Assembly: GCA_963664815.2 (NCBI GenBank)
Contig: CAXXHB010000003.1
Span: 1,280,001 to 1,344,000, forward strand
Reading direction: 5' to 3'
From: Spirochaetota bacterium
GTDB taxonomy: Bacteria; Spirochaetota; UBA4802; UBA5550
DNA: 64,000 nucleotides
Shown here: positions 33,395 through 46,505 of the stretch, piece after piece
How positions within the stretch are numbered: the stretch's first letter is position 1
Layout: each line of letters starts with the position of its first letter
Notes under the pieces: generated by a model
The model's input: only the letters and a program-made list of their open reading frames with translations
Told to the model about the DNA's origin: nothing
Databases searched by the model: none
Translations under genes and position numbers: made by a program

Positions 33395-34057
33395 TTATCT
33401 CTCCGCCGAAATAATCCAGTGTGAAATGACCTTTGATATATCTCCTATAATTGTTCTCTCCATCCAGCCGTAACTGAAAATCCCGAATATGCTGAATATA
33501 TCTTTTAACTCCTCCTCGCTGAAGAATGAGACAACGCCCCCGGTAAGATCGTCCAGTCCGGTTTTCCAGGTGTTATTTCCCAGATGATCCCCCGTTTTTA
33601 AATATGTATCATTGTCTCTTCTTAATGTGGCAAACAGAGTCCCTCCTTTTTTTATTACTCTTTTTGTCTCTCCAAGCATAAAACGCATTTCTTCTTTTGT
33701 CGAGTAGTGAAGGGAGCCCCAGGCGACGGCTATATCAAAGGTTTCATTTCTAAACGGCAGACTTTTATTGTCACAGTTAATCAGATTGTGAAAGCCTGCT
33801 TCACTGCAGATATTAAGAGCGTTAAGGCTGTAATCGCTTCCGAAAACTTCCGGAATTCCCGATTCTCTAAGGAGTGAAATATGCCTGCCGCTTCCGCATC
33901 CTATATCAATTGCGTTTAATTTATCTTTATTGCCGGCTTTTTTAAGTTTGCCTGCTATCAGACGCACAAGATTTTCATCAGGATATGATAATACAGATTT
34001 GTTTTTTTTATAATGGCTGTTCCATTCGTTCATTTTCATTCTGTATAATTTCTTCAT
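33395..34057 (-). CDS. Class I SAM-dependent methyltransferase
   Basis: IDIGCGSGRH, LPFRNETFD, WGSLHY, KKGG; exact start uncertain. Confidence 0.9.
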   Translation of the reverse strand: MKKLYRMKMNEWNSHYKKNKSVLSYPDENLVRLIAGKLKKAGNKDKLNAIDIGCGSGRHISLLRESGIPEVFGSDYSLNALNICSEAGFHNLINCDNKSLPFRNETFDIAVAWGSLHYSTKEEMRFMLGETKRVIKKGGTLFATLRRDNDTYLKTGDHLGNNTWKTGLDDLTGGVVSFFSEEELKDIFSIFGIFSYGWMERTIIGDISKVISHWIISAER

Positions 34058-35294
34058 CCTCTTTTTTTGATTCTTTTTTTATCCGGATATTCATCTCTTT
34101 TTCAGCTGAATCTGCATTTTCAATTGCGTGTTGAACAGTCTTGCCTGATGCAACTATTACACCAATACGGTCATGATTAGTTAAAGGGCGTGTAGTTTTT
34201 TCTCCAATATGCTTGAAGATTCTTGTGAAAATTATATCATCCATTTTCTGAACAGAATCGGTATTACATGATGTAAGTACACCGTTTGTTCCGGTTATAT
34301 ATTTTACAGCAACAGGATTATTTAATGATAATTTCAGCGGAATTTTAAAATCATATGAAGACGACGCCCTGAGCGTATTACCGAGATGATTGTAGCCTGT
34401 GGCGGCCGGTATCATTATATCCGGAATGAATTCACCGCCAAACTCCGGTACAGCCTCAAGGAGGTAAAGTTTTTCATCGCTGTCAACAACAAACTCCATA
34501 ATCAATGGTGCAGTATGTATGTTAAAGGCATCTGCAATTTTCTGCCCGGTTTCAACTGTGTTATTTACCAGATGCTGGTACTTTGACGGTGCAGTATGCA
34601 TGATGTCGACAAAGTGTGGATGTGGAGTTGTTTTTTTATCGCTGACAAGTATATGGTAGTATTTTTTTTCATGAATAAGACCGGCGCAGATTATTTCATC
34701 TCCCGTTATGAACTGTTCAATAATATAATCCTGTGCGGAGTGATGTTTCATGAATTTATCAAATTCAGCGGAGTTCTTTATGAGTATCACATCCATTTTT
34801 GCATGGCCGGTTTGCGGCTTGGCAATAACTGGGTAGAGTGTCTCTTTAATACCGGAAATTTTTGTTTTCTGTGTAATATTTACGGATGCGGGTGTAAGTA
34901 TTCCATTCTCGTCGTATATTTTTTTTGTAGTTTTTTTATTAAGAAATTTTTTACTGTTTTCAAAAGGGAGGAAGGGCAGGCCGAATTTTTCACAGAGATA
35001 TGCTGTGGTGATAATTGCATTACCATATGATTTTGTCATTATAGTGGAAATTTTACCATCTACGAGCATCTCCCTGAGCTTTACATAGATACTTTCATAA
35101 TCTTCAACAGATTCCTGAATTTTAAGATCACAATGATAGAAGCCTGGTGCTGATGCATTCATATCAACTGCAATAACCTGAAACCCGTTTCTTTTTGCTT
35201 CTTTTATCAGTGGTATCTGATTTATACCTGCACCTATTGAAACAAAATAATCATTTGAAGGTCTGGTTTTTTTCCCGAATATTTTAAACTTCAT
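34008..35294 (-). CDS. ATP-grasp domain protein
   Basis: IGAGINQ Rossmann-like start, NKKTTK, PVIAKP, IIEQFITGDE, EF...LLEA. Confidence 0.85.
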   Translation of the reverse strand: MKFKIFGKKTRPSNDYFVSIGAGINQIPLIKEAKRNGFQVIAVDMNASAPGFYHCDLKIQESVEDYESIYVKLREMLVDGKISTIMTKSYGNAIITTAYLCEKFGLPFLPFENSKKFLNKKTTKKIYDENGILTPASVNITQKTKISGIKETLYPVIAKPQTGHAKMDVILIKNSAEFDKFMKHHSAQDYIIEQFITGDEIICAGLIHEKKYYHILVSDKKTTPHPHFVDIMHTAPSKYQHLVNNTVETGQKIADAFNIHTAPLIMEFVVDSDEKLYLLEAVPEFGGEFIPDIMIPAATGYNHLGNTLRASSSYDFKIPLKLSLNNPVAVKYITGTNGVLTSCNTDSVQKMDDIIFTRIFKHIGEKTTRPLTNHDRIGVIVASGKTVQHAIENADSAEKEMNIRIKKESKKEDEEIIQNENERMEQPL

Positions 35295-35546
35295 ATTATA
35301 TTTCCGGCCCTCCAGTGATATTTGTAGACACTTTTAAGTAACAATTATAAACACTAAATCAACGACAGTGGTTTTATATATCTTAATCGCTCTGAAGCGA
35401 AATGTTAAAAACAACCTTTCTGATTTAAAAGTCGGGAAATTTTTAAAAATTCTAAACTATATATAGTTATATAGCAATACAAATTTTATATGATTGGAAG
35501 GATTAATTGAATTTAGGTGTTATTGTATGCGGATAAAGAGGATTTA

Positions 35547-36032
35547 TCAGGTTTTACAGAATGATGAATAAACCAGTTTCTGTACATCTTCACAACTTAC
35601 AATTTTTTTATAAACAGGACAGTCTCTGCAGGAAGGAAAAGGATCGAGACATTTTTCTACAGTTGCCCAGCAGGGTTTTGTGCTTATATTGTAAGCTTTA
35701 CAGAGAGTCCCATGTTTTGAATTGCATTTTCTAAGCTTGAAACATGGTACAAATGCAAGCAGCCTTCTTATCCCCTCAAAATTCAGTCCCTCTTCCTGTA
35801 TCATTTTTTTTATGCATTTGACTTTTTCAATCTCCAGGTCGGAGTATAATCTTCTCCCTGTGGTGGTTTTGTAAGTGATTATCAGCCCTTCCGCTTCGTA
35901 TAATCTCAGGGTGTGCACTGATACGCCGAGTTTTGCCGCAGCCACACCTATCGTATAAACAGGCTCAAAGAAGTCCCGTGAGTCGCGGTTTATTTCAGGA
36001 GTATATTCACTTTCATCTTTTATAGTGTTCAT
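35547..36032 (-). CDS. MerR-family (HspR-like HTH) regulator with Cys-rich C-terminal domain
   Basis: YTIGVAAAKLGVSVHTLRLYEAEGLI, GRRLYS; C-terminus PCF...C...C...PCW...C...CRDCPVY. Confidence 0.9.
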   Translation of the reverse strand: MNTIKDESEYTPEINRDSRDFFEPVYTIGVAAAKLGVSVHTLRLYEAEGLIITYKTTTGRRLYSDLEIEKVKCIKKMIQEEGLNFEGIRRLLAFVPCFKLRKCNSKHGTLCKAYNISTKPCWATVEKCLDPFPSCRDCPVYKKIVSCEDVQKLVYSSFCKT

Positions 36033-36105
36033 ATTTTGTTTAAGTCCGGTTCCCTGTCAGAAAACATTTTTCTGCAACTCTTTGAACAAAGCAATGATTT
36101 TTTTA

Positions 36106-36143
36106 AATAAAAGTAACGTCATATTTAAGGCGTTACTTTTATT
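36106..36143. terminator. Hairpin between fadL-like gene and merR (terminator or processing stem)
   Basis: AATAAAAGTAACG-N12-CGTTACTTTTATT. Confidence 0.5.
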
Positions 36144-36293
36144 CTGTGTTATAACTGTAAAGTTAATTATTTTCTGAATAATGATCATCTATATGCTGTA
36201 AAAAAGATTTTCATTGTTCTTTTTAATTCTCATCTGAGCATCCGGTTCGAATTTATGCTATATATATAAATGAAAACCGCCTGATCCAGGTTG

Positions 36294-37472
36294 TCAGAAA
36301 TTATATGCTATACCCATATCCAGTGAGTATTGCGACATCTTTGTCTCACCCAGAGAAGATTTAACCTTAGCTTCCGGTGAATACATGTAACCGAGTTCAA
36401 GGGAAAGTTTTTCGCCAAGTTTAACACCTGCACCGGCTGTATAGTGCCATTCTGAAACAGCAGGAAAAAACATGTTTGCATTTAGAGCATTAGAGTTATC
36501 TTCACTTAACGGCATCTTCCCGTAATTCAGACCAGCCCTTATTTTCAGGATAGGCATAACATTATACTGTAAGCCGAATTTATATACAATCTGGTCATCC
36601 CACTGCATGTCGAAGCTTCTGTCACCGGTTGCAGAACCGGTATATTCGGGCAGATTATTCCCGTTGGTTTCAGACCATCTGATCCACTGCAGATCAAAAG
36701 CAATAACAAGTCCGGTAACAGGTTTAAATCCAAAACCGATAGTAGCACTCATGGGCTGGTCAAATGTCAGAGTATTCCGGGCAGTTCCTGCGGTTGATAT
36801 GTATTGATTGAATTTAAAATCCTGAAATTTACTTTTTGTTTCATAAACAATACCTACAGTCAGCATATCAACAGGTTTTACAGTAACACCTATTGTGCCG
36901 CCATAACCGAATGCAGATGACGTCATGTCAACAATCTGTGCGCCAAAACCCGGGTTGTACATTGAATATTCCATTGTGGCATACATAACATTCAGCGTAG
37001 CTCCAATAGATATCATATCATTTACTTTGTAGGAAATTCCTGGTGCGAATCTCATGTTGGTATAGTTCGTGTAAAGCAGACCACCGGATGAGGCACCAAG
37101 ATCGTAGTCAACTCCCATTCCCGAAACTCCATACGCTCCAAGACCAAATGTCATATCTGCATTAAGAGGTATAATCATTCCGAATGCAGGTACAGGAGAT
37201 GCCTTTTTATCTGATGTAAACTCTGCTCCCGATGCCGTTTCGGTTTTAACTGTCGGGGCAAAGTACGAGGCACCGAAATCGACTCTTCCTCCAAGCGACT
37301 GGATTCCTGCAGGATTGGTAAGAATAGATGCCGCGTCAAGATTAACTCCGGTACTCGCTCCACCCATGGAATCCTGTACCGGGCCAAAACCTATCATTCT
37401 CATGCCGTTTGTGGCAAAAGCGTTTGATACTGCTACCAACATTAGTATTGACAAAATGAAACTTTTTTTCAT
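36294..37472 (-). CDS. fadL: OmpP1/FadL/TodX-family outer-membrane transporter
   Basis: Signal peptide, ATNG...SMGGA...NPA hatch motif, amphipathic beta strands, C-terminal YNF. Confidence 0.88.
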   Translation of the reverse strand: MKKSFILSILMLVAVSNAFATNGMRMIGFGPVQDSMGGASTGVNLDAASILTNPAGIQSLGGRVDFGASYFAPTVKTETASGAEFTSDKKASPVPAFGMIIPLNADMTFGLGAYGVSGMGVDYDLGASSGGLLYTNYTNMRFAPGISYKVNDMISIGATLNVMYATMEYSMYNPGFGAQIVDMTSSAFGYGGTIGVTVKPVDMLTVGIVYETKSKFQDFKFNQYISTAGTARNTLTFDQPMSATIGFGFKPVTGLVIAFDLQWIRWSETNGNNLPEYTGSATGDRSFDMQWDDQIVYKFGLQYNVMPILKIRAGLNYGKMPLSEDNSNALNANMFFPAVSEWHYTAGAGVKLGEKLSLELGYMYSPEAKVKSSLGETKMSQYSLDMGIAYNF

Positions 37473-37547
37473 ACTGAACCTCGCTTTATAGTTTTAACCT
37501 GCCCTGTGCCTCTCTACAGGCCGGGCAGGGTTTTTTAAGAGTATTTT

Positions 37548-38795
37548 TTATATTTTTAGATTTTCACATACAATCTCTGTCAGGTATTTAACCTCCACAT
37601 CAAGTCCATAACCGCTTTTAATCAGCTGCAGCTGAGTCACGCAGTTTTCGCAGGCTGAGACCACTACTTTAGCGCCGGTTTTAACTATCTGTTCTTTTTT
37701 AGGTTTTCCGGTTTTAATACGGAACTCCTCGTTGTCCAGGGCTCCAAGACCACCGCCGCCTCCGCAGCACCAGTTCTGTTCCCGGTTTGGAGTCATTTCC
37801 CTGTAATCTGAAGCTATGAATTTAAGGACATCGCGCGGTTCCTCGTAAATACCACCATTTCTGCCGAGCTGACAAGGGTCATGGTATGTAATGGCTTCAG
37901 TTACGGATTTTTCTTTCAGTTTAATTCTTCCGCTTTTCATATACCGGTATATTACCTCGACAATACTTGAGACCCTGAAGGGGAGTTCTCCCATAAGGCT
38001 GTGAAGAATCCTGAAAGCAGTACCGCATTCAACCATAACAACTTCTTTTACTTTTAACGATATGGCCTCCTTAATTATCCGTTGGGCGATGAAATCAGCT
38101 TTTTCCGGATCTCCGGCAAAGAATCCGAAATTAACACCTTCAAAGTAACTGAGAGTCCAGTTTTCCTTTGCAGCATTGAAAATTACAGCCGGATTTACTA
38201 TAGAGTGAGCACCCGCAAGTCCTACATATAATATGTCCGCATTCATTTTCTCCATAGGTATAAGATTTTCAGATGAAGGGAGCATAAGCTTTTCCTGAAC
38301 AGTTTTTTCAAGGTCATGAATTATATCACGGTATCCATTTTTGAATTCATCTATACTTTTTCCTTTTTCAACTGCGGCGTCGGCTAGCATCACAAGCTCT
38401 TCAGGTGCTGTGCCGTTTTTTACAAGGAGATGTTTGGCTACACCCATCATCATCCCGGTATCAATTCCGAACGGACAGTTCACCATACAGCGACGGCATC
38501 CCGTGCAGGACCATGCAGCTTCATGCAGCTGATCCATTACAGTGTCGCTGAATTCTGCTGCATCAGTCAGATAAGGGAATAACGTTCCTGACGGGCGGGT
38601 ATATCTTTTGTAAAGTCTGCGTAATACCTCGGCGCGCCCTACCGGGGAAAATTCTTTTTTAGGAATCCCGTTATATGCATGGCATGTATCGTAGCACAAA
38701 CCGCATCGTGTGCATGTATCCACATAATACTTCATGGGCCTGTTTAAACGGGACTTCAGTACACTTTTAAGTTCTCTGATTTTTTCTTTTTCCAT
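37548..38795 (-). CDS. Fe-S oxidoreductase, DsrK/HdrD/TmcB-like (two 4Fe-4S motifs plus CCG domain)
   Basis: CTRCGLCYDTC, CTGCRRCMVNCP, YHDPC, CCGGGGG, SACENC. Confidence 0.88.
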   Translation of the reverse strand: MEKEKIRELKSVLKSRLNRPMKYYVDTCTRCGLCYDTCHAYNGIPKKEFSPVGRAEVLRRLYKRYTRPSGTLFPYLTDAAEFSDTVMDQLHEAAWSCTGCRRCMVNCPFGIDTGMMMGVAKHLLVKNGTAPEELVMLADAAVEKGKSIDEFKNGYRDIIHDLEKTVQEKLMLPSSENLIPMEKMNADILYVGLAGAHSIVNPAVIFNAAKENWTLSYFEGVNFGFFAGDPEKADFIAQRIIKEAISLKVKEVVMVECGTAFRILHSLMGELPFRVSSIVEVIYRYMKSGRIKLKEKSVTEAITYHDPCQLGRNGGIYEEPRDVLKFIASDYREMTPNREQNWCCGGGGGLGALDNEEFRIKTGKPKKEQIVKTGAKVVVSACENCVTQLQLIKSGYGLDVEVKYLTEIVCENLKI

Positions 38796-38798
38796 AAT

Positions 38799-39515
38799 TT
38801 ACTTCCTCTTCAGGTTTAATGAAAGAAATGCAAACACCATATGTACCATCTTTGTGAAAGGGAGCATCATTAAAACGATGTTTGCGAGAAAGATATGCAG
38901 AGCGATGAGTACAAAGTGAGGTGAGCCGGCCATGTTTTCCGGGATAACCGGTTTGAGCGCTATTATGCTTCCCAGATATTCCCTGTACATATCAGCGTTA
39001 ACTCCGAATTGTGCCATCCCATAACGCTCACCGATATGCAGATGAGTGCCGATTACTGATGTGACAAAAAGAAGAAGAAGTATTATAAAGTCCTCCGGAA
39101 CTGATATCTCTCTCCAGGGGGTCCGAAACCTTCTAAAGAGAAAATAGAGCAGAGATGCAATAACTGTCAGTCCGACTGCACCCGCACCCAGAAAAACTTC
39201 ATGGCGGATTAACTGAATGATTTTAAATTCCCTGATGAGTTCAATGTGCCCCAGCAGCAGAAGAAACATTGCAATGTGAAACAGAACAATAAAAAACCAG
39301 AAGACTTTTGCCTTGCCCCAGGCTGAAGGAACAGACAATGCTTCTGCAGCGATGCCGACTGGGCGCGGCAACTTCCGGGGGTATGTCGCAAGTGAACCGC
39401 GGAATTTTTTTGAGAAAAAAACCGCCGCAAGTTTGAAAATTATTCCCCCTGCAAAAACAGCAGCCGCAGTGTACAGCATAGGAACCATGGCAAAATAATA
39501 AATTTTATCCCACAT
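38799..39515 (-). CDS. Membrane cytochrome b, NarI/DsrM-like
   Basis: About five TM helices with His ligands FHIAMFLLLLGH, LHIFLA, TKMVH; LFRR motif. Confidence 0.85.
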   Translation of the reverse strand: MWDKIYYFAMVPMLYTAAAVFAGGIIFKLAAVFFSKKFRGSLATYPRKLPRPVGIAAEALSVPSAWGKAKVFWFFIVLFHIAMFLLLLGHIELIREFKIIQLIRHEVFLGAGAVGLTVIASLLYFLFRRFRTPWREISVPEDFIILLLLFVTSVIGTHLHIGERYGMAQFGVNADMYREYLGSIIALKPVIPENMAGSPHFVLIALHIFLANIVLMMLPFTKMVHMVFAFLSLNLKRK

Positions 39516-39536
39516 AAATAATCCCTCTTACACGGT

Positions 39537-39776
39537 TTATTTTAATTTTTTAATATAGAAAACTGTAACGTTATCTTTTTTTTCTGTGCCGACAATTTCG
39601 TTTCCGGTGGACTTTGCCCAGGCCGGAAAATCGGCATGTGCTCCAGGATCTGTGGTTTCTGCTGCAAGAACCTGTCCAATCTGCATTTTTTTTATCTGCT
39701 GACTTACTTTAATAACAGGCATAGGGCATGCCACACCCTTGAGATCCATGCTGATATCTGATTTAATTTCGCTCAT
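39537..39776 (-). CDS. tusA: TusA-family sulfur carrier protein
   Basis: DLKGVACPMP (CPxP), TDPG...DFPAW. Start after AAGGAGA. Confidence 0.92.
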   Translation of the reverse strand: MSEIKSDISMDLKGVACPMPVIKVSQQIKKMQIGQVLAAETTDPGAHADFPAWAKSTGNEIVGTEKKDNVTVFYIKKLK

Positions 39777-39905
39777 ATTATTTCTCCTTTTAAATTTTAA
39801 AATTATTTCAATTAACGTTTCTGTCTGTAATTCCATAACTGGTGATATCAATACAGAAACATTCCAAATCCTTCAATGAGAATATTGCCTGCAGAATTTA
39901 CTTAA

Positions 39906-40445
39906 TCATATGAATAGCTGTATTTTGCTGTCGCCAGCCTCTTCCAGAAATTTTGCCACTCCGACGAACTCTCTTCCAGGATAGTCGATCATCTCATCCT
40001 GTTTAAAACCCATAAGATCCATTGACATATCGCATATGTAGATCTTAACCTCCATTTCTATTGCCATGGACCGTAATTCTTCAAGTGATGCTACATTTTT
40101 CTTCTTCATCAGATGTTTCATCATTCCTGTTCCCATTCCACCCATGTTCATTCTGGAGAGTTTAACCTTACCTGCACCTTTCGGCAGCATAAATCCGAAC
40201 ATTTTACCGAAGAGATCTTTCCCTTTCCCTTTTTTCTTCTTATCCCTCAGGGAGGGTGTAGCCCAGAATGTGAAAAACATAACTACTTCCATTCCCATTG
40301 CGGCAGCGCCTGTTGCGATTATAAACGCTGCCAGAAGTTTATCCAGGTCGCCGCTGAAGACAACCATTGACAGCTTGTTTTTTCTGTCGTCACGGACCTG
40401 CTTCATTTCGTTCTGCAGTGATTCAATTACTTTTTGAACATCCAT
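39906..40445 (-). CDS. DsrE2-like (DsrE/F/H) sulfur-relay protein
   Basis: VFSGDLDK, AAAMG, FFTFW, LSRMNMGGMG, ICDMSMDLMG; AGAGGAG RBS. Confidence 0.9.
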   Translation of the reverse strand: MDVQKVIESLQNEMKQVRDDRKNKLSMVVFSGDLDKLLAAFIIATGAAAMGMEVVMFFTFWATPSLRDKKKKGKGKDLFGKMFGFMLPKGAGKVKLSRMNMGGMGTGMMKHLMKKKNVASLEELRSMAIEMEVKIYICDMSMDLMGFKQDEMIDYPGREFVGVAKFLEEAGDSKIQLFI

Positions 40446-40501
40446 AATATACTCCTCTTAATTGTATTACTCTGGAAAAATGAAAAATTAACAATAGTAA
40501 C

Positions 40502-40612
40502 TCCTGACCTTTTTTATAATATAAAATACTCTATATCTTACCGCCTCCAAAGTCGGCGGTGAGATATAATCGTTCATTTTAAACTGAAACTTATGATCAT
40601 GAATTAACATCG
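40502..40612. repeat. Dispersed intergenic hairpin element, copy A
   Basis: TCCTGA...AATACTC-TATATCTTACCGCC-N9-GGCGGTGAGATATA-ATCGT...GAATTAACATCG. Confidence 0.75.
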
Positions 40613-40702
40613 AAAATTTAAAATCTTAACCATACATCCTTAAGATATGTAAGGTTTGTGAATAAATCTATAAATGATATAATTTACAATCATATATGCT
40701 TA

Positions 40703-40758
40703 ATTGACACATGCATATAATCTATATTATATAATATAGATTATATGCATGTGTCAAT
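40703..40758. promoter_or_regulatory. Perfect 56-bp palindrome containing TTGACA-N20-TATAAT on both strands
   Basis: ATTGACACATGCATATAATCTATATTAT|ATAATATAGATTATATGCATGTGTCAAT, between the divergent dsrE2 cluster and the araC gene. Confidence 0.8.
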
Positions 40759-40898
40759 ATGTTTTTATCTTTTTTTATTTTTTTTTCATGTTTATAACTG
40801 GCGGTATTTAAAATTTAATTCTTGTTAATTTTATTGTATTAATTACAGACGTGTAATTAGCTTTTAAAATCTATTTGGCGTGTATCAAACGGGAGTAT

Positions 40899-42005
40899 AT
40901 GTTACCTGATATTTCAAATGCGTTTATACTTTTTGGCGGGGGGCTTTCTTTTTTGATTGCCCTTGTACAGCTTCTCCAGGCCAGGAGCAGGTTCAGGAAC
41001 ATTCTGCTTTTTTTAATTTTTTCAAGCCTTGCAGTTATCCAGGTTCAGGGATATGCCTTTTCAAGCACACACTATGAAAGATCCGGTTCAGGGATGATGA
41101 TCTTTCTCCTTGCTAAATTTATCTTCGGCCCGTCGATCTATATTTTTTACCTTTCTGTGTTCCAGAAAGATTATTTTTTTTCTACGAAAGAGTTTGTTCA
41201 TTTTCTTATGGCAGCTTTTGTCCTGTTGGTAATCATTATTGTAATGCTTCCGGCTGGTTACAGGACAGGCTTTCTTGCAATACCATATTCTTTTATAGAA
41301 AATGGTTCTGTTATTGAATACCTCCATTCTTTCGGCTTTGCCCTGATACTCGGTTATATACTTGCAATCTTTTCAAAACTTGAAGTTATGAAGGTTTTAC
41401 GTGATTCCAACAGGGACAGGCTGCTGATTGTAACAATTACAGTTATTACAATTTTATTTCTTATTACAACATTGATTATTGTGTCGATGATTACCGGTTA
41501 TAGTTCTTTTGCAAGGGGTGCCATGACACTTACAACACTCTTTGTAATATACTGGTTTGTAATCTCCCAGATCCATCCCGAGATTTTTCTTGTCGCTGCC
41601 GGCAGAAACAAAAAAACAAACCGGATAGAAGGACTTCTTCAGGGAATAGATATTAAAAAGCTTGAAGCCGGTCTCGATGAACTACTGATGAAAGAGAAAC
41701 TTTATTGCGACGAGGATCTCTCTCTCAGGAGACTTGCCGGACTTATCGGTATTCAGCCGCAGGAGCTTTCGGTATATTTAAATCACCACCTTCAGGTGAA
41801 TTTTAATTCTTTTATCAACAGGTACAGAGTTGATGAGGCAGTTAATATGATGAAGGATGACACAAACCGTTCCCTGCTTTCAATAGCCTTTGCTGTAGGC
41901 TTCAATTCAAAATCTGTTTTTTACGAGGCATTTACAAAACAGACAGGAATATCCCCCGCCCGTTACAGAAAATCCCTTGCTGCCGGACAAAAAAGTCCGG
42001 AATAA
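40899..42005 (+). CDS. AraC-family regulator with multi-TM N-terminal sensor
   Basis: About seven hydrophobic helices; LSLRRLA, NFNSFINRYRV, IAFAVGFNSKSVFYEAF...TGISP. Start after GGGAG. Confidence 0.92.
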   Translation: MLPDISNAFILFGGGLSFLIALVQLLQARSRFRNILLFLIFSSLAVIQVQGYAFSSTHYERSGSGMMIFLLAKFIFGPSIYIFYLSVFQKDYFFSTKEFVHFLMAAFVLLVIIIVMLPAGYRTGFLAIPYSFIENGSVIEYLHSFGFALILGYILAIFSKLEVMKVLRDSNRDRLLIVTITVITILFLITTLIIVSMITGYSSFARGAMTLTTLFVIYWFVISQIHPEIFLVAAGRNKKTNRIEGLLQGIDIKKLEAGLDELLMKEKLYCDEDLSLRRLAGLIGIQPQELSVYLNHHLQVNFNSFINRYRVDEAVNMMKDDTNRSLLSIAFAVGFNSKSVFYEAFTKQTGISPARYRKSLAAGQKSPE

Positions 42006-42251
42006 TTTATCCGGTCGATTTAAACTCAGAAACCGCTCATAGTATAATTAAGGTAGCGCGTTCAGGGTTGACTTTACCAGGTACATTGCGGGTTTGGCCG
42101 GGATAAACGGGAATATATGGATAAGGGATGTTTTTTACACCGCCGGTTCTTTCCAATAAACGGTAAATAACTATATTACTCATGAAACAATCCTGAAAAA
42201 CTACCTGAGAATTATTAAAAGAAAATAAACTGATTTTCAGGAGTGGCCTGT

Positions 42252-45200
42252 ATGAGCTTAAAAAATGTTCTCGGGATTGATATAGGTTCAATTTCGGTAT
42301 CTGTAGTTGAGATGACCCGGGAAAGAGAAATTGTTAAAAAAGATTACGGATTTCATGAAGGGCATATCAGGGAGACACTTCTCGGATTGCTGGAGAGCTA
42401 TAGTTTCAGTGAAATATCAGCTCTGGCTTTAACATCTTCCACGCCGGATATTTTTTGCAAAGGGGGGAGGTTTGACTCCAGAATTTCCATTATATCTGCG
42501 GCAAAGCATATTCATAAAAAGCCGGGGGCAATTCTTCTGATAGGTGGAGAAAAGTTCGGGCTTACCATGTTTGATGAGAATGGAAATTACAGAAATTATA
42601 AATCAAATACCTCATGTGCGGCCGGAACCGGGAGTTTTCTTGAACAGCAGGCAAGGAGGCTTAATCTTCCTGATATACAGACTTTCAGCAGGATTGCGGA
42701 AGGTAACTCAGGAGGCATTCCTAAAATCGCATCAAGGTGTGCCGTATTTGCAAAAACTGACCTGATTCATGCCCAGCAGGAGGGGTACTCCCTGGCAGAG
42801 ATATGTGACGGCCTCTGTCATGGTCTTGCAAGGAGTGTGGCAGACACTCTTTTTGGTAATGAAAATGCCGTTGATCCGATAGTGATGGCGGGGGGTGTTT
42901 CAAAGAACAGAGCTGTAGTGAAACATCTTTCTTCGATAATAGAAAAAGAGATTATAGTCGATGAGAATTCCCATATCTTCGGAGCTATAGGGTGCGCGCT
43001 TCTTTATCTTGAGGGTGCGGAAAACAATACCCTGAAAGATTATGATCTCAGTCTTGATTCTGCAGAAGATATTATTTCAGATCATAAGAAAATGAAAAAT
43101 TACCATTATAAACCTCTTAAACTGGAACTTTCTGAATACCCGGATTTTAAAAGCCTCAGATCGTACGAATATATCCCGAAATATTTCCCTATGGCAACTC
43201 CGGTAGAGATTGATATATACAATAATGTTGATTCATCAAGGGTTGTGCCGGTTTATATGGGAATTGATATAGGATCGACCAGCACAAAGGCTGCTATTGT
43301 TGATATTAACGGTTCTGTCGTTGCGGGATTATATACACGTACGGCGGGGAGACCTGTCGAAGCTGTACAGGCCATTTTTGAAGCAGTTGATGATACAGGT
43401 TTTTCATTTGAATTCCTTGGGGTAGGGACAACAGGGTCCGGCAGAAAGTTCATAGGCAGTATAATCGGGGCTGATTCAGCCCTTGATGAAATTACAGCGC
43501 ACGCCAGGGCTGCGTATATGCTTGATCCTGATGTTGATACGATAATTGAGATCGGGGGGCAGGACGCAAAATTCACCACGCTAAGGAACGGTATGGTAAC
43601 ATTCTCAATAATGAACAATGTCTGCGCTGCAGGGACAGGGAGTTTCATAGAAGAGCAGGCAAGAAAGCTTTCGTGCCCGCTTTCGGAATATGCCGGGAGG
43701 GCTGAAGGGCTCCCCGCACCTCTTTCAAGCGACAGGTGTACTGTCTTTATGGAGCGGGATCTTAATCATTACCTGAGCGAGAACTATACGACAGATGAAG
43801 TGCTGGCCTCTGTGCTTCATTCTGTACGGGAAAACTACCTGACCAAGGTCGCCATAGAAAAAAATATTGGCGATAAGATTTTTTTTCAGGGGGCTACTGC
43901 CAAAAATATAGCGCTTGTAGCAGCCTTTGAGCAGCGTCTTGGCAAGCCGATAATGGTATCAAAATTCTGCCATATTACAGGCGCGCTGGGTGCAGCGCTT
44001 GATCTTATTGATCATAAGGTTGTTGAATCGACATTTCGCGGGATTGGTATTTATAAACAGAAAATTCCTGTTAAAACCGAGGTATGCGGACTCTGTAACA
44101 ACAGCTGCAAGATCAAGATTGCGGAAGTAAACGGCGATACTGTAGCATTCGGATTTTTGTGCGGGAGGGATTATGAGACAAAACGTTTTGTTAACCAGAA
44201 CAGCTCAGGATTTGATCTTCTGAAGGAGAGAAAAAGCCTGATGGATGTAAAACCGCTGAGAGAACCGCAGTATGATTTTACAGTCGGTATTCCCGCTGCA
44301 CTTCATATGTTCGATGAGATTGAGCTGTGGAAAGACTTTTTCGCCAGACTCGGGATAAAGACAGTAACCAGTGAAAAATGCGGAAGCGGGATAAGGGAGG
44401 GTAAAAAGATCTCAGGTTCGGAGTTCTGTGCACCGATGTCGGGCATGCATGGCCATATACAGTACCTTGCCGGTAAAGCTGATTACATTTTTCTGCCTGT
44501 TTTCCTGGAGCAGAAAAACGATGTACAGGGTGTCAGGAGAAATTACTGTTACTATACACAGTTTGTTACGCCGATAATAAATGCCTGCGGGGCTATTGAC
44601 CGGAGGGAAAATATTCTGTCGCCGGTCATACGTTCGCTGGGAAGCACGATTAATCTGAAACTTCAGCTGCTTAAAATGTTCAAAGGCATTTCCGGCAGCA
44701 GCATTACATTTATGCAGGTTTCATCCGCCTACGACTCTGCTTTAAAGAAATTTAATGAGAAAAAAAACAGGCTTGTTTCTCTTTATGAAAAACACAGGAG
44801 TAAAAGTGATATAAACATTGTACTGCTCGGAAGGCCATATACCGTACTTTCATCCTCAATGAATAAAGGCATACCTGAAATTATAGGCAAAATTGGTGTA
44901 AAAGCTTTTTTTCAGGATATGATACCTTCAGACAGTAAAGCAAAGGAGGATGCAGACCCTCTGCTCAGGCTGCTTCACTGGAATTATGCGGCATCAATAC
45001 TCGAATGTGCAGGTGTTGCAGGCAAAGCAGATGGTCTTTATCCCGTGCTTGTAACTTCATTCAAGTGTACTCCCGATGCCTATACGATAGAATATTTTAA
45101 AAAAATAATGGATGCCCATAATAAACCATATCTGATTCTTCAGCTTGACGAACATGATTCGAATGTGGGATACGAAACGCGTATAGAGGCGGGGATAAGG

Positions 45201-46505
45201 TCTTTCAGAAACCATTTCAGCGCAGGAGAAACAAGGCAGGCCGCCGATTATTCGGCAGTTAATCCTCTGGTGGTTACAAAGAGAAGCGTTCTTAGAGGGA
45301 AAACACTTCTCCTTCCAAGATGGGATGGCATTCTCGGGGAATTCATGACAGCCCTTCTGCAGCATGAAGGTATTGACGCGCGTATGGTTGACGAAAGCCG
45401 TGAATCAATACAGAGAAGCCTGAGCCACAATACCGGGCAGTGCATTCCTCTTAACATAATCATTCAGAACTGTGTTGAATATATAAGAAAGCACGATCTC
45501 GATCCAGCAAAGACAGTTATGTGGAATATAAGCTCAAAAATTTCATGTAACCTGGGAATGTTCTCATATTACAGCAAAACCCTGCTTGAGTCAATGGGGG
45601 GAGGCCTTGAGAAAATTGAGGTTTATGCCGGATCAATAACCCTTACAGATATTTCATACCGGGCAGCTCTGAATATGTATACGGCGTGCATGTTTGCAGG
45701 AATGCTTCGCCGCATGGGGTGTTATTTAAGACCCTATGAAACGGTACCGGGGAAAACAGACAGTGTTCTTGAACTTTCAATACCTGTAATATCAGAGGCG
45801 TTCCGGACCGGATCCTCAAGAGAGAAGGCGCTTGAAGAGGTTATAAAGCATTTTGAATCTGTCGAGGTGAAAAGAACCGATCGTCCAAAAGTGGCTATAT
45901 TCGGTGATCTATATGCGCGGGATAATGACATTCTGAACCAGAATATAATATCTGTCATTGAAAGGAACGGTGGAGAGGTTATTACAACGCCATACAGTGA
46001 ACTGATAAAGATCATTGCCGGGCCGTATATAAAAAAATGGATGAAAGAGGGGAGGTATCTTGAAGCCCTGACATCTAAAATTCTGGAACAGGCCATTACG
46101 GTATTTGAGAATAAATACTTTCCATATTTCAACCGCATATTGAAGGGGAATACAGATATTGCTCTTCCTCCGTTCACCGGGGTACTTGAGAAATTCAATA
46201 TGAAGACGGAACATACCGGCGAGTCCATGGAAAATGCGCTTAAAATATATTCCCTGATGATGCATCATCCCGATCTTAAACTTTTTGTACAGACAAACCC
46301 GGCATTCTGCTGCCCGTCGCTTGTCACCGGGGCAATGTCCCGTCATATCGAATCTGTAACAGGTATACCGATTGTAACAATTGAGTATGATGGGACCGGC
46401 GGGTTTAAAAACGATGACATTATTCCCTACCTGAAATACCCGAGGAGTGGTGTCATAAGTAAAAACGGGGATAACCCGGTTAATGATGAATACAACTGTG
46501 CCTGA
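42252..46505 (+). CDS. Acyl-CoA dehydratase activase fusion (2x BadF/BadG/BcrA/BcrD ATPase + DUF2229-like + dehydratase-like domains)
   Basis: GIDIGS twice, CAAGTGSF twice, RCAVF/RCTVF, EIGGQDAK, FCAP, SFKCTPD, LQLDEH, QCIP, PAFCCP. Confidence 0.9.
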   Translation: MSLKNVLGIDIGSISVSVVEMTREREIVKKDYGFHEGHIRETLLGLLESYSFSEISALALTSSTPDIFCKGGRFDSRISIISAAKHIHKKPGAILLIGGEKFGLTMFDENGNYRNYKSNTSCAAGTGSFLEQQARRLNLPDIQTFSRIAEGNSGGIPKIASRCAVFAKTDLIHAQQEGYSLAEICDGLCHGLARSVADTLFGNENAVDPIVMAGGVSKNRAVVKHLSSIIEKEIIVDENSHIFGAIGCALLYLEGAENNTLKDYDLSLDSAEDIISDHKKMKNYHYKPLKLELSEYPDFKSLRSYEYIPKYFPMATPVEIDIYNNVDSSRVVPVYMGIDIGSTSTKAAIVDINGSVVAGLYTRTAGRPVEAVQAIFEAVDDTGFSFEFLGVGTTGSGRKFIGSIIGADSALDEITAHARAAYMLDPDVDTIIEIGGQDAKFTTLRNGMVTFSIMNNVCAAGTGSFIEEQARKLSCPLSEYAGRAEGLPAPLSSDRCTVFMERDLNHYLSENYTTDEVLASVLHSVRENYLTKVAIEKNIGDKIFFQGATAKNIALVAAFEQRLGKPIMVSKFCHITGALGAALDLIDHKVVESTFRGIGIYKQKIPVKTEVCGLCNNSCKIKIAEVNGDTVAFGFLCGRDYETKRFVNQNSSGFDLLKERKSLMDVKPLREPQYDFTVGIPAALHMFDEIELWKDFFARLGIKTVTSEKCGSGIREGKKISGSEFCAPMSGMHGHIQYLAGKADYIFLPVFLEQKNDVQGVRRNYCYYTQFVTPIINACGAIDRRENILSPVIRSLGSTINLKLQLLKMFKGISGSSITFMQVSSAYDSALKKFNEKKNRLVSLYEKHRSKSDINIVLLGRPYTVLSSSMNKGIPEIIGKIGVKAFFQDMIPSDSKAKEDADPLLRLLHWNYAASILECAGVAGKADGLYPVLVTSFKCTPDAYTIEYFKKIMDAHNKPYLILQLDEHDSNVGYETRIEAGIRSFRNHFSAGETRQAADYSAVNPLVVTKRSVLRGKTLLLPRWDGILGEFMTALLQHEGIDARMVDESRESIQRSLSHNTGQCIPLNIIIQNCVEYIRKHDLDPAKTVMWNISSKISCNLGMFSYYSKTLLESMGGGLEKIEVYAGSITLTDISYRAALNMYTACMFAGMLRRMGCYLRPYETVPGKTDSVLELSIPVISEAFRTGSSREKALEEVIKHFESVEVKRTDRPKVAIFGDLYARDNDILNQNIISVIERNGGEVITTPYSELIKIIAGPYIKKWMKEGRYLEALTSKILEQAITVFENKYFPYFNRILKGNTDIALPPFTGVLEKFNMKTEHTGESMENALKIYSLMMHHPDLKLFVQTNPAFCCPSLVTGAMSRHIESVTGIPIVTIEYDGTGGFKNDDIIPYLKYPRSGVISKNGDNPVNDEYNCA

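Follow-up and report, generated by a model that had tools for sequence, protein, structure and literature searches.

How bacteria take up and reduce elemental sulfur, which is insoluble in water, is a long-standing gap. To our knowledge, no outer-membrane route for S8 has been demonstrated, and the terminal sulfur reductases that we know of are either molybdenum (Psr/Sre) or flavin (Npsr/NSR) enzymes. A six-gene locus in the genome of a Spirochaetota bacterium (positions 35,547 to 40,758 of the 64,000 nucleotides of contig CAXXHB010000003.1 analysed here and called the window) offers a concrete set of parts for both steps: a channel, two one-cysteine carriers, a DsrMK-like and presumably quinol-linked enzyme, and a regulator with a defined operator. 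An initial annotation, made from the sequence alone, had proposed that hydrophobic sulfur enters via a FadL channel, is loaded on DsrE2 and TusA and is reduced or oxidised by a DsrMK-like pair, with TusA taking the place of DsrC. Does the locus encode such a pathway, and which of its genes belong together? We find that the conserved unit is dsrE2-tusA-M-K, where M denotes a membrane cytochrome b and K an Fe-S subunit, and that FadL and MerR are accessory to it. On balance we lean towards an enzyme that uses menaquinol to reduce sulfane sulfur bound to TusA and DsrE2, with FadL as candidate entry for hydrophobic sulfur. We found no description of a dsrE2-tusA-MK operon, or of a FadL within such a unit, in the literature, subscription papers and supplements aside.

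The genes are co-oriented on the minus strand in the order dsrE2-like, tusA, M, K, fadL and merR (Table 1), and their coordinates, strand and Pfam matches agree with the types first assigned to them. K carries two 4Fe-4S cysteine motifs and one complete C-terminal CX(n)CCG...CXXC motif, and 14 of its cysteines are kept in 31 of 31 orthologues (28/31/34/38, 97/100/103/107, 257, 308, 343/344 and 382/385). K is predicted to bind Fe-S clusters and to reside in the cytoplasm. Its best family matches are DsrK (236.5 bits), TmcB (216 bits) and HmcF (203 bits), each under its cut-off. Only 3 nt separate the K start from the stop of M, which scores as a NarI-type cytochrome b, has about five hydrophobic helices by hydropathy, and keeps His80, His90 and His225 in 31 of 31 orthologues and His200 and His207 in 30 of 31; M is likely to bind haem, probably two. 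It scores far under the equivalog cut-offs for TmcC (NF045723, 48.7 against 240 bits) and DsrM (NF038037, 36.1 against 300 bits).

Each of the two carriers has one cysteine. Cys138 of the DsrE2-like protein is kept in 29 of 29 orthologues; the protein scores 94.7 bits with the DsrE2 equivalog NF047629 (cut-off 210), and its nearest solved chains are 3pnx (E 1e-31) and 2qs7. In TusA, the motif around Cys17 reads ACPMP, this cysteine is kept in 18 of 18 orthologues, and column identity averages 80% across 28 orthologues, with the ATG at 39776, not the TTG at 39851, as the conserved start. The E. coli-type TusA equivalog NF001423 gives 41.5 bits against a cut-off of 78. The whole genome (5.2 Mb in 3 contigs, 96.2% complete) has one PF13686 gene and two TusA genes.

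The linkage of the MK-like pair to dsrE2 and tusA, which the initial annotation had read from a single locus, proved to be general. We compared related genomes, which are kin and not independent samples, with open reading frames called by a simple script. At 32 of 39 genome loci with a K relative, dsrE2, tusA, M and K stand in a row; at six of the remaining seven the contig starts inside or just before M-K, and the last, a distant locus (36% identity, Zixibacteria label), has M-K without the carriers. A metagenome scan with more distant K orthologues as queries gave 80 loci, of which 44 have at least 1.9 kb upstream of K; all four genes are present in 41 of these, arranged as E2-TusA-M-K in 26 and as E2-M-TusA-K in 15. 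Such recurrence indicates that the clustering of the four genes is more than chance. FadL did not turn out to be part of the recurring unit, and the other neighbours of the core are variable and mostly housekeeping genes, with a YgaP-type small membrane-domain gene preceding dsrE2 in 11 loci.

K orthologues occur in 59 of 122 genomes of the spirochaete order, and 301 sampled genomes of the phylum yielded orthologues of 65% identity or more in this order alone. At least 441 metagenome stretches, from anoxic habitats, were confirmed to hold the four-gene core. The closest relatives are deposited as uncultured Spirochaetota or Leptospirales metagenome-assembled genomes (MAGs), and only three deposited labels lie outside Spirochaetota (Pseudomonadota, Acidobacteriota and Aminicenantes MAGs). 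One metagenome clade in the K tree includes a genome of the same spirochaete order, so that any spread of the module beyond Spirochaetota is tentative.

Other genes and variants were seen around the core, which is paired with different regulators in other lineages. Among the metagenome loci (L078-L157), 23 have upstream of dsrE2 a MarR-type gene whose N-terminus is rich in Cys. A CsoR-family gene, accompanied by CopZ-like and zinc-ribbon genes, was observed downstream of K in 8-13 loci, in one metagenome clade; small DsrE-like and unassigned proteins (~95-125 aa) are encoded downstream of K in about 10 loci. The CsoR-family protein was considered as a persulfide sensor and disfavoured, for its Cys-His-Cys pattern, together with the copper chaperone, points to copper homeostasis. 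K is split in two genomes (G039:C29:8701-9938, with one in-frame TGA, and G283:C39:25347-26391), and a K-adjacent fadL in a third (G370:C298:5884-6879) carries two in-frame stops; these broken copies may reflect decay or assembly errors.

The module is separate from the Dsr system. The absence of dsrA and dsrC, which had been noted for the window, extends to the 96.2%-complete genome, where dsrA and the DsrC family (PF04358) each gave 0 matches. None of hdrA, hdrB1B2, hdrC1C2 and lbpA was seen in the loci examined, the genome not having been searched for them. K falls well short of the DsrK equivalog NF045796 (cut-off 400 bits), and in a phylogeny of the Fe-S proteins every one of the 30 carrier-linked K proteins falls in a single clade (SH-aLRT 99), set off by long branches from a true DsrK and two paralogues; the tree was built by a quick method with a midpoint root, and its long branches are unreliable in detail. 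In a sister genus, a complete dsr locus (DsrA 557, DsrB 489, DsrK 697.8 and DsrP 436 bits) is present together with DsrC, and the four-gene module is kept alongside in a copy of its own. Across the order, DsrC is present in 29 of 122 genomes, 21 of them K-positive and 8 K-negative. The proposal that TusA replaces DsrC is sustained in part: no DsrC was found in 38 of the 59 K-positive genomes, that of the window included, while the other 21 have both DsrC and a true Dsr system, and in these the module stands beside the Dsr system and is no replacement for it.

A structural prediction bears on the same proposal. Co-folding of K with TusA, from our own 28-row alignments of both proteins, gave a score of 0.86 (runs of 0.87, 0.85 and 0.86), with none of three controls above 0.01. 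In the calibration of the method, 58 of 80 complexes of known structure and 2 of 110 mismatched pairs attained this mark, counts that are approximate here since the alignments were self-supplied. The runs have at least 98% of their contacts in common, and the pLDDT of the partners is at least 88. On the TusA side the predicted interface comprises residues 16-22 (including Cys17), 42-49 and 51-57, and on the K side residues 133-162, 193-199, 217-223, 351-352, 383, 387 and 390, of which 351-352, 383, 387 and 390 flank the CCG-site cysteines Cys343/344 and Cys382/385. Both faces are nearly invariant in the clade, and the K helix differs in true DsrK. A sequence search of solved complexes returned none similar to K-TusA. 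The model thus supports binding of TusA at the CCG site of K, with the Cys17 loop placed there, and the best reading is that TusA, perhaps together with DsrE2, stands in for DsrC.

The predicted docking also counts against a quite different role, in which M-K would feed the quinone pool in the manner of ETF:menaquinone oxidoreductases, without disulfide chemistry, and FadL would import fatty acids. CCG proteins fused to or paired with NarI-like parts do occur in electron transfer unrelated to sulfur, and fatty-acid genes are present in the window; an oxidoreductase of this kind (EMO) is named in the accessible text of PMC11094781. However, none of the loci examined has etfAB beside the module, whose strict linkage is with TusA and DsrE2, and the closest families of K are DsrK, TmcB and HmcF, so that we regard this role as highly improbable.

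What, then, do FadL and MerR add? The locus is preceded by a long palindrome, with which the upstream end first given for it (40758) coincides. Its core, TCTATA-N8-TATAGA, lies at 40721-40740, and toward dsrE2 a TATAAT follows 20 nt past a TTGACA. In relatives the same layout, TTGAC-N11-13-TCTATA-N8-TMTAGA, is found ahead of dsrE2, a phsA-like gene or fadL. The exact pattern precedes dsrE2 in all six genus-level genomes, the phsA-like gene in 3 genomes and fadL in 2 (11 promoters in 10 genomes), and adjoins a second merR copy in 1 genome; one of the operator-preceded fadL genes lies apart from the Phs operon that its genome also has. Elsewhere in 1.38 Mb (172 loci) the exact pattern occurs once only, inside coding sequence. 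MerR may bind the palindrome and control the promoter. Past a terminator-like hairpin in the fadL-merR spacer, a motif ahead of merR is kept in the same-genus loci, and merR probably has its own promoter.

Further scans of the region gave little. A sigma-70 scan returned counts at the level of shuffled sequence, the scan being blind to the 20-nt spacer, and Rfam matches on 35300-41000 were sub-threshold microRNA look-alikes on the palindrome, dismissed as hairpin artefacts. A second genomic match to the operator core (G000:C3:3886055) lies inside AraC-like coding sequence and was put down to chance. Its host gene is a paralogue (L075:760-1857) of an AraC-family regulator in the window (40875-42005, plus strand), which appears to be membrane-anchored, with an N-terminal multi-helix part and an HTH_18 domain, and which diverges from dsrE2; the gene is kept there in three same-genus loci.

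Under the shared operator, FadL and MerR are found with a second kind of sulfur module. In K-negative relatives, FadL-MerR (FadL 57-72% identical) closes an operon that encodes a PhsA-like molybdoenzyme, a 4Fe-4S protein, an NrfD-type anchor, two YedE/TsuA-type halves and a rhodanese. The molybdoenzyme matches thiosulfate reductase PhsA best, with 481 bits (cut-off 694). In some other genomes the Phs-type set is accompanied by MerR and not by FadL, and all six genomes with the Phs-type set are K-negative; the window genome lacks a close PhsA orthologue (best 28% identity). At one locus (L061) only fadL-merR is retained. A hotdog thioesterase gene upstream of fadL there was considered as a member of the unit and rejected, since the operator sits between the two genes; the position of the operator and a spacer remnant like the 3' end of the rhodanese gene point to a deletion form of the Phs-type cluster. 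At another (L165, G100:C1:1-19500) we observed MerR with an HD-domain protein, a PhsA-like and a 4Fe-4S protein and a cytochrome b561-type anchor instead of NrfD, and a second, operator-preceded merR copy 800 bp further on.

As the same operator-FadL-MerR frame serves Phs-like and MK modules, both are likely to handle the same external sulfur compound, and the FadL within the frame suggests a compound hydrophobic enough to need it. The carrier-bound substrate could instead be a thiosulfonate derived from thiosulfate or tetrathionate, which DsrE2 and TusA would bind and K would cleave reductively with menaquinol, with FadL a general channel that was merely recruited. Reduction of tetrathionate by menaquinol would be strongly downhill, and the PhsA-like protein, the YedE/TsuA-like halves and the rhodanese of the same-operator module are all known from thiosulfate handling. 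In Metallosphaera, DsrE3A and TusA bind thiosulfate from tetrathionate (PMC4175335, in its accessible text), but the DsrE2-like protein of the window belongs to PF13686 and not to the DsrE3A group studied there. Thiosulfate and tetrathionate are hydrophilic and need no FadL, yet FadL lies under the same operator, and no match to PF04143, the YedE-type inner-membrane sulfur importer, was found in the window genome. We consider a thiosulfonate substrate unlikely.

The distribution of FadL is patchier than that of the core. At a threshold of E at most 1e-30, orthologues are present in 24 of the 122 genomes, 18 K-positive and 6 K-negative. FadL adjoins the core in 8 of the 59 K-positive genomes, in three arrangements: downstream of K in the window, in four same-genus genomes and in one genome of another family, and upstream of dsrE2 in two further genomes. 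K is followed by a FadL homologue (27-31% identity) in 7 of the 52 metagenome loci that extend 1 kb or more past it; Pfam confirmed the three that were tested. MerR orthologues occur in 14 of the 122 genomes, in one family only, and their contexts are sulfur modules; one same-genus genome has K-MerR without FadL. FadL and MerR, placed inside the module by the initial annotation, do not belong to its conserved part, as the 8 adjacencies in 59 genomes and the confinement of MerR to one family indicate; a link of FadL to sulfur is supported by the operator shared with the Phs module and by the metagenome loci.

Another alternative is a housekeeping explanation, in which the core would repair or recycle oxidised TusA and DsrE2 of cofactor and tRNA thiolation and FadL would serve fatty acids or other hydrophobic carbon, adjacent by accident or through lipid metabolism. 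Most core loci do lie amid xseAB-like, ileS-like, lspA-like and flagellar genes, an acyl-CoA synthetase-type gene stands 6 kb away in the window, and some FadL homologues adjoin a FadR-type regulator. Against this, one operator and one regulator serve FadL together with two unrelated sulfur modules, the unlinked fadL included; the K-FadL adjacency recurs in far-diverged lineages in its three arrangements; a quinone-linked membrane complex would be an unusual tool for carrier repair; and presence in 59 of 122 genomes is unlike a housekeeping function. We judge this explanation very unlikely.

For the core we propose the following mechanism. dsrE2-tusA-M-K-fadL would form one transcription unit behind the palindromic operator, with merR next to it. 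The dihaem cytochrome b M would take electrons from menaquinol, a plausible donor given the MenG/UbiE gene in the genome (227.9 bits, over the cut-off), and would hand them to K on the cytoplasmic side. The CCG-bound Fe-S centre of K would then reduce zero-valent sulfur held on TusA Cys17, either as a persulfide or as a bridge to DsrE2 Cys138, whereupon sulfide would be released and the carriers regenerated. In such a scheme the two one-cysteine carriers would mimic the two-cysteine arm of DsrC, giving an analogue of the reaction of DsrMK with DsrC-trisulfide. We infer the direction of the electrons, the use of a quinone and the form of the sulfur, and we regard as probable the central claim that M-K reduces carrier-bound sulfane sulfur with menaquinol.

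The direction deserves particular attention. K might oxidise sulfide or carrier thiols to carrier sulfane sulfur while M reduces menaquinone, as an Fe-S counterpart of sulfide:quinone oxidoreductase for detoxification or sulfur supply, with FadL passing the hydrophobic product out or in. With potentials of about -74 mV for menaquinol and about -270 mV for persulfide/sulfide, electron flow from sulfide to menaquinone is downhill; the reductive direction, like the reaction of polysulfide reductase, runs uphill under standard conditions, and thermodynamics therefore leaves the direction unsettled. Family scores, conserved residues and the co-fold do not fix it either. In sulfur oxidisers, TusA/DsrE-type proteins feed CCG-domain Hdr-like enzymes oxidatively (PMC11094781), but the characterised relative of M-K works reductively (PMC10861901), in both cases according to the accessible text. 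Moreover, the enzyme that takes the place of M-K beside FadL-MerR is of the PhsA/PsrA type, a reductive class, and the genome gave no match to dsrA, which would encode a downstream oxidising enzyme. We therefore think that oxidation is improbable and retain the menaquinol-driven reduction of carrier-bound sulfur as the preferred reading of the core.

The accessory layer of this genus is conceived less firmly. FadL would admit S8 or an organic polysulfane through the outer membrane, and this compound would, purely by analogy with fatty-acid uptake, partition through the inner membrane and be trapped by attack of a carrier thiol. The Cys-rich MerR would sense the hydrophobic sulfur compound or its products. 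The cargo of FadL and the signal for MerR are what we infer from the company that both keep, and a FadL that passes hydrophobic sulfur under a MerR that senses and controls it is, to our mind, possible rather than probable.

Besides the uphill electron transfer, several observations weigh against the combined reading. In 51 of the 59 K-positive genomes FadL is not next to the core, and 41 of the 59 yielded no FadL orthologue anywhere. Within the order, some FadL homologues adjoin a FadR-type regulator with FAD oxidases, and others lie beside a sulfatase and its maturase or beside sugar-nucleotide genes, while the FadL tree mostly tracks taxonomy, with K-adjacent copies in both main clades. The missing PF04143 importer belongs here as well. 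The bare operator pattern has 2 sites in the genome against 3 and 2 for the reversed control, and, as it is not over-represented, its evidential weight lies in its placement alone; the centre of the dyad overlaps the presumed -10 and does not lie in mid-spacer as in classical MerR activation. Finally, all genomes compared are MAGs, with taxon labels as deposited and unverified. With these points counted, the menaquinol-driven reductase with FadL as candidate entry keeps a slight balance of probability. A more sweeping version is rather doubtful: that the module is a third kind of terminal reductase for sulfur respiration, quinol-driven, DsrMK-like and served by TusA/DsrE2 carriers, that FadL is the first dedicated outer-membrane entry route for elemental sulfur, and that both stand under a Cys-rich MerR sensor which switches interchangeable reductases, periplasmic and Phs-like or cytoplasmic and MK-like.

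Table 1 Features of the locus and of one gene seen downstream of merR in relatives. Positions are those of the window, except in the last line; Pfam gathering cut-offs are 25 (PF13686), 28.6 (PF01206), 22.9 (PF02665) and 29.7 (PF03349) bits.
Feature	Position	Strand	Remarks
Promoter/operator palindrome	~40705..40757		Long and perfect; TTGACA at both ends; 20-pair stem
DsrE2-like sulfur carrier, 179 aa	39906..40445	-	PF13686 177.8 bits; Cys138 single
TusA-family sulfur carrier, 79 aa	39537..39776	-	PF01206 75.2 bits; Cys17 in CPxP, sole Cys
M, membrane cytochrome b of NarI/DsrM/TmcC type, 238 aa	38799..39515	-	PF02665 47.5 bits
K, Fe-S subunit of DsrK/TmcB/HmcF/HdrD kind, 415 aa	37548..38795	-	PF02754 CCG 52.8 bits
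G+C-rich inverted repeat	37498..37530	-	Read from sequence; in 75-nt K-fadL spacer
FadL/TodX-family outer-membrane channel, 392 aa	36294..37472	-	PF03349 106 bits; no Cys
Terminator-like hairpin	36106..36143		15 pairs; in 261-nt fadL-merR spacer
MerR-family regulator, 161 aa	35547..36032	-	PF13411 62.2 bits; 10 Cys
Small secreted CxxCH protein, ~80 aa	L010:10652-10894, L011:9115-9366, L027:6522-6764, L042:8895-9230		Weak cytochrome c matches

Several neighbouring genes may be recorded beside these features. In four same-genus genomes the small secreted protein of Table 1, with CxxCH and C-x4-CH motifs, lies directly downstream of merR; a tblastn search found no counterpart in the window. At 33395-35294 (minus strand) of the window, genes for an ATP-grasp (L-amino-acid-ligase-like) protein and a class I methyltransferase overlap, a pair kept downstream of merR in four same-genus loci. 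At 42243-46505 (plus strand) the window encodes a 1420-aa CoA-enzyme-activase-like fusion of two BcrAD/BadFG-type ATPase domains and DUF2229 with a weak HGD-D match, and this protein adjoins the AraC gene in one relative (L010) too.

Paralogues of FadL and MerR were also followed. Two genes of ~545 aa beside the FadR-linked FadL, first taken as acyl-CoA synthetases, are FAD oxidases by Pfam. Weaker MerR paralogues (54-59% identity) were uninformative for sulfur, as they adjoin chorismate synthase, FAD synthetase, methyltransferase-type and ArsR genes. At one further locus (L171, G051:C18:14000-28500) a MerR paralogue diverges from an operon with DsrC-family and DsrE2-family proteins, an FAD disulfide-oxidoreductase-type protein, an unassigned 215-aa protein and a sodium:solute symporter, which may be another carrier-based sulfur module.

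Seven molybdopterin oxidoreductase genes are present in the window genome, two of which have one in-frame TGA each (G000:C2:568310-569581 and G000:C3:687794-689455); the single TGA suggests that these two encode selenocysteine enzymes. The organism would seem to live by anaerobic respiration and not by fermentation alone. A four-gene core that is mostly found without Dsr may explain sulfide production and sulfane handling that are missed when dsrAB or psrA serve as markers.

Among known systems, the regulator resembles MerR/HspR proteins in its N-terminal helix-turn-helix (HTH), in the palindromic operator presumed to serve it and in the 20-nt spacer of the promoter there. Unlike these, it reaches no equivalog model (HspR 61.7 bits against a cut-off of 105, for an HspR-like HTH), its dyad covers the presumed -10, and its Cys-rich C-terminal half, whose cysteine pattern is common to the 8 aligned orthologues, matches no family; the nearest protein-atlas clusters are unnamed MerR proteins. 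For the channel, which has a hydrophobic, signal-like N-terminal helix and belongs by score to PF03349, the family of FadL, TodX, TbuX and OmpP1, the parallel is CT2230 of Chlorobaculum tepidum, a FadL-family protein suggested to move hydrophobic sulfur chains (bioRxiv 10.1101/172254); this and the papers cited below are drawn on for what their accessible text states. The two proteins share the family and the idea of hydrophobic sulfur, and the evidence in the window is the shared operator and the recurrent adjacency to sulfur modules.

The enzyme may be set beside several reductases. PsrABC and PhsABC, with the Sud rhodanese, carry out quinol-dependent reduction of polysulfide and thiosulfate in Wolinella and Salmonella (PMC10092268). 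Quinol-dependent reduction of sulfane sulfur would be common to these and the window module, and a Phs/Psr-like set fills the same operator-FadL-MerR frame in relatives; in contrast to these periplasm-facing molybdoenzymes, the window module would face the cytoplasm, use Fe-S centres and depend on carriers. Pcar_0429, a proposed terminal S0 reductase, is an NAD(P)H flavoprotein fused to rhodanese, TusA and DsrE domains (PMC3543383). It too combines a cytoplasmic reductase with TusA-like and DsrE-like carriers, but as a single polypeptide with NAD(P)H as donor and no link to membrane or quinone, whereas the window module is probably quinone-linked.

Closer in their catalytic domain are the Hdr-type enzymes. 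The sHdr system consists of soluble HdrA, HdrB and HdrC with lipoate-binding proteins and works oxidatively with TusA/DsrE carriers (Tanabe et al. 2024, PMC11094781). Here as there, genes for TusA and DsrE-family carriers accompany that of a CCG-domain enzyme, to which the carriers hand sulfane sulfur in sHdr and would do so in the window; the enzyme in the window is of DsrK type and would sit on a quinone-linked membrane anchor. HdrDE of methanogens pairs a membrane cytochrome b with a CCG Fe-S subunit and reduces CoM-S-S-CoB with a quinone-like membrane carrier. The two-subunit layout is the same, although the substrate there is a small-molecule heterodisulfide, and no HdrD-specific model is among the family matches of K.

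The nearest parallel is DsrMKJOP, a menadiol:DsrC-trisulfide oxidoreductase from which sulfide is released (Barbosa et al. 2024, PMC10861901). Like DsrMK, the window pair comprises a NarI-type cytochrome b and a subunit with two 4Fe-4S motifs and a CCG site, and would act on zero-valent sulfur held by a small protein, with sulfide as the proposed product. Unlike DsrMKJOP and DsrC, it has a K of a separate clade that scores under the DsrK cut-off, comes without DsrJOP, and is partnered by a one-cysteine TusA and DsrE2. For the evolution of DsrMK, it would be a case of this catalytic pair at work on carriers that are not DsrC.

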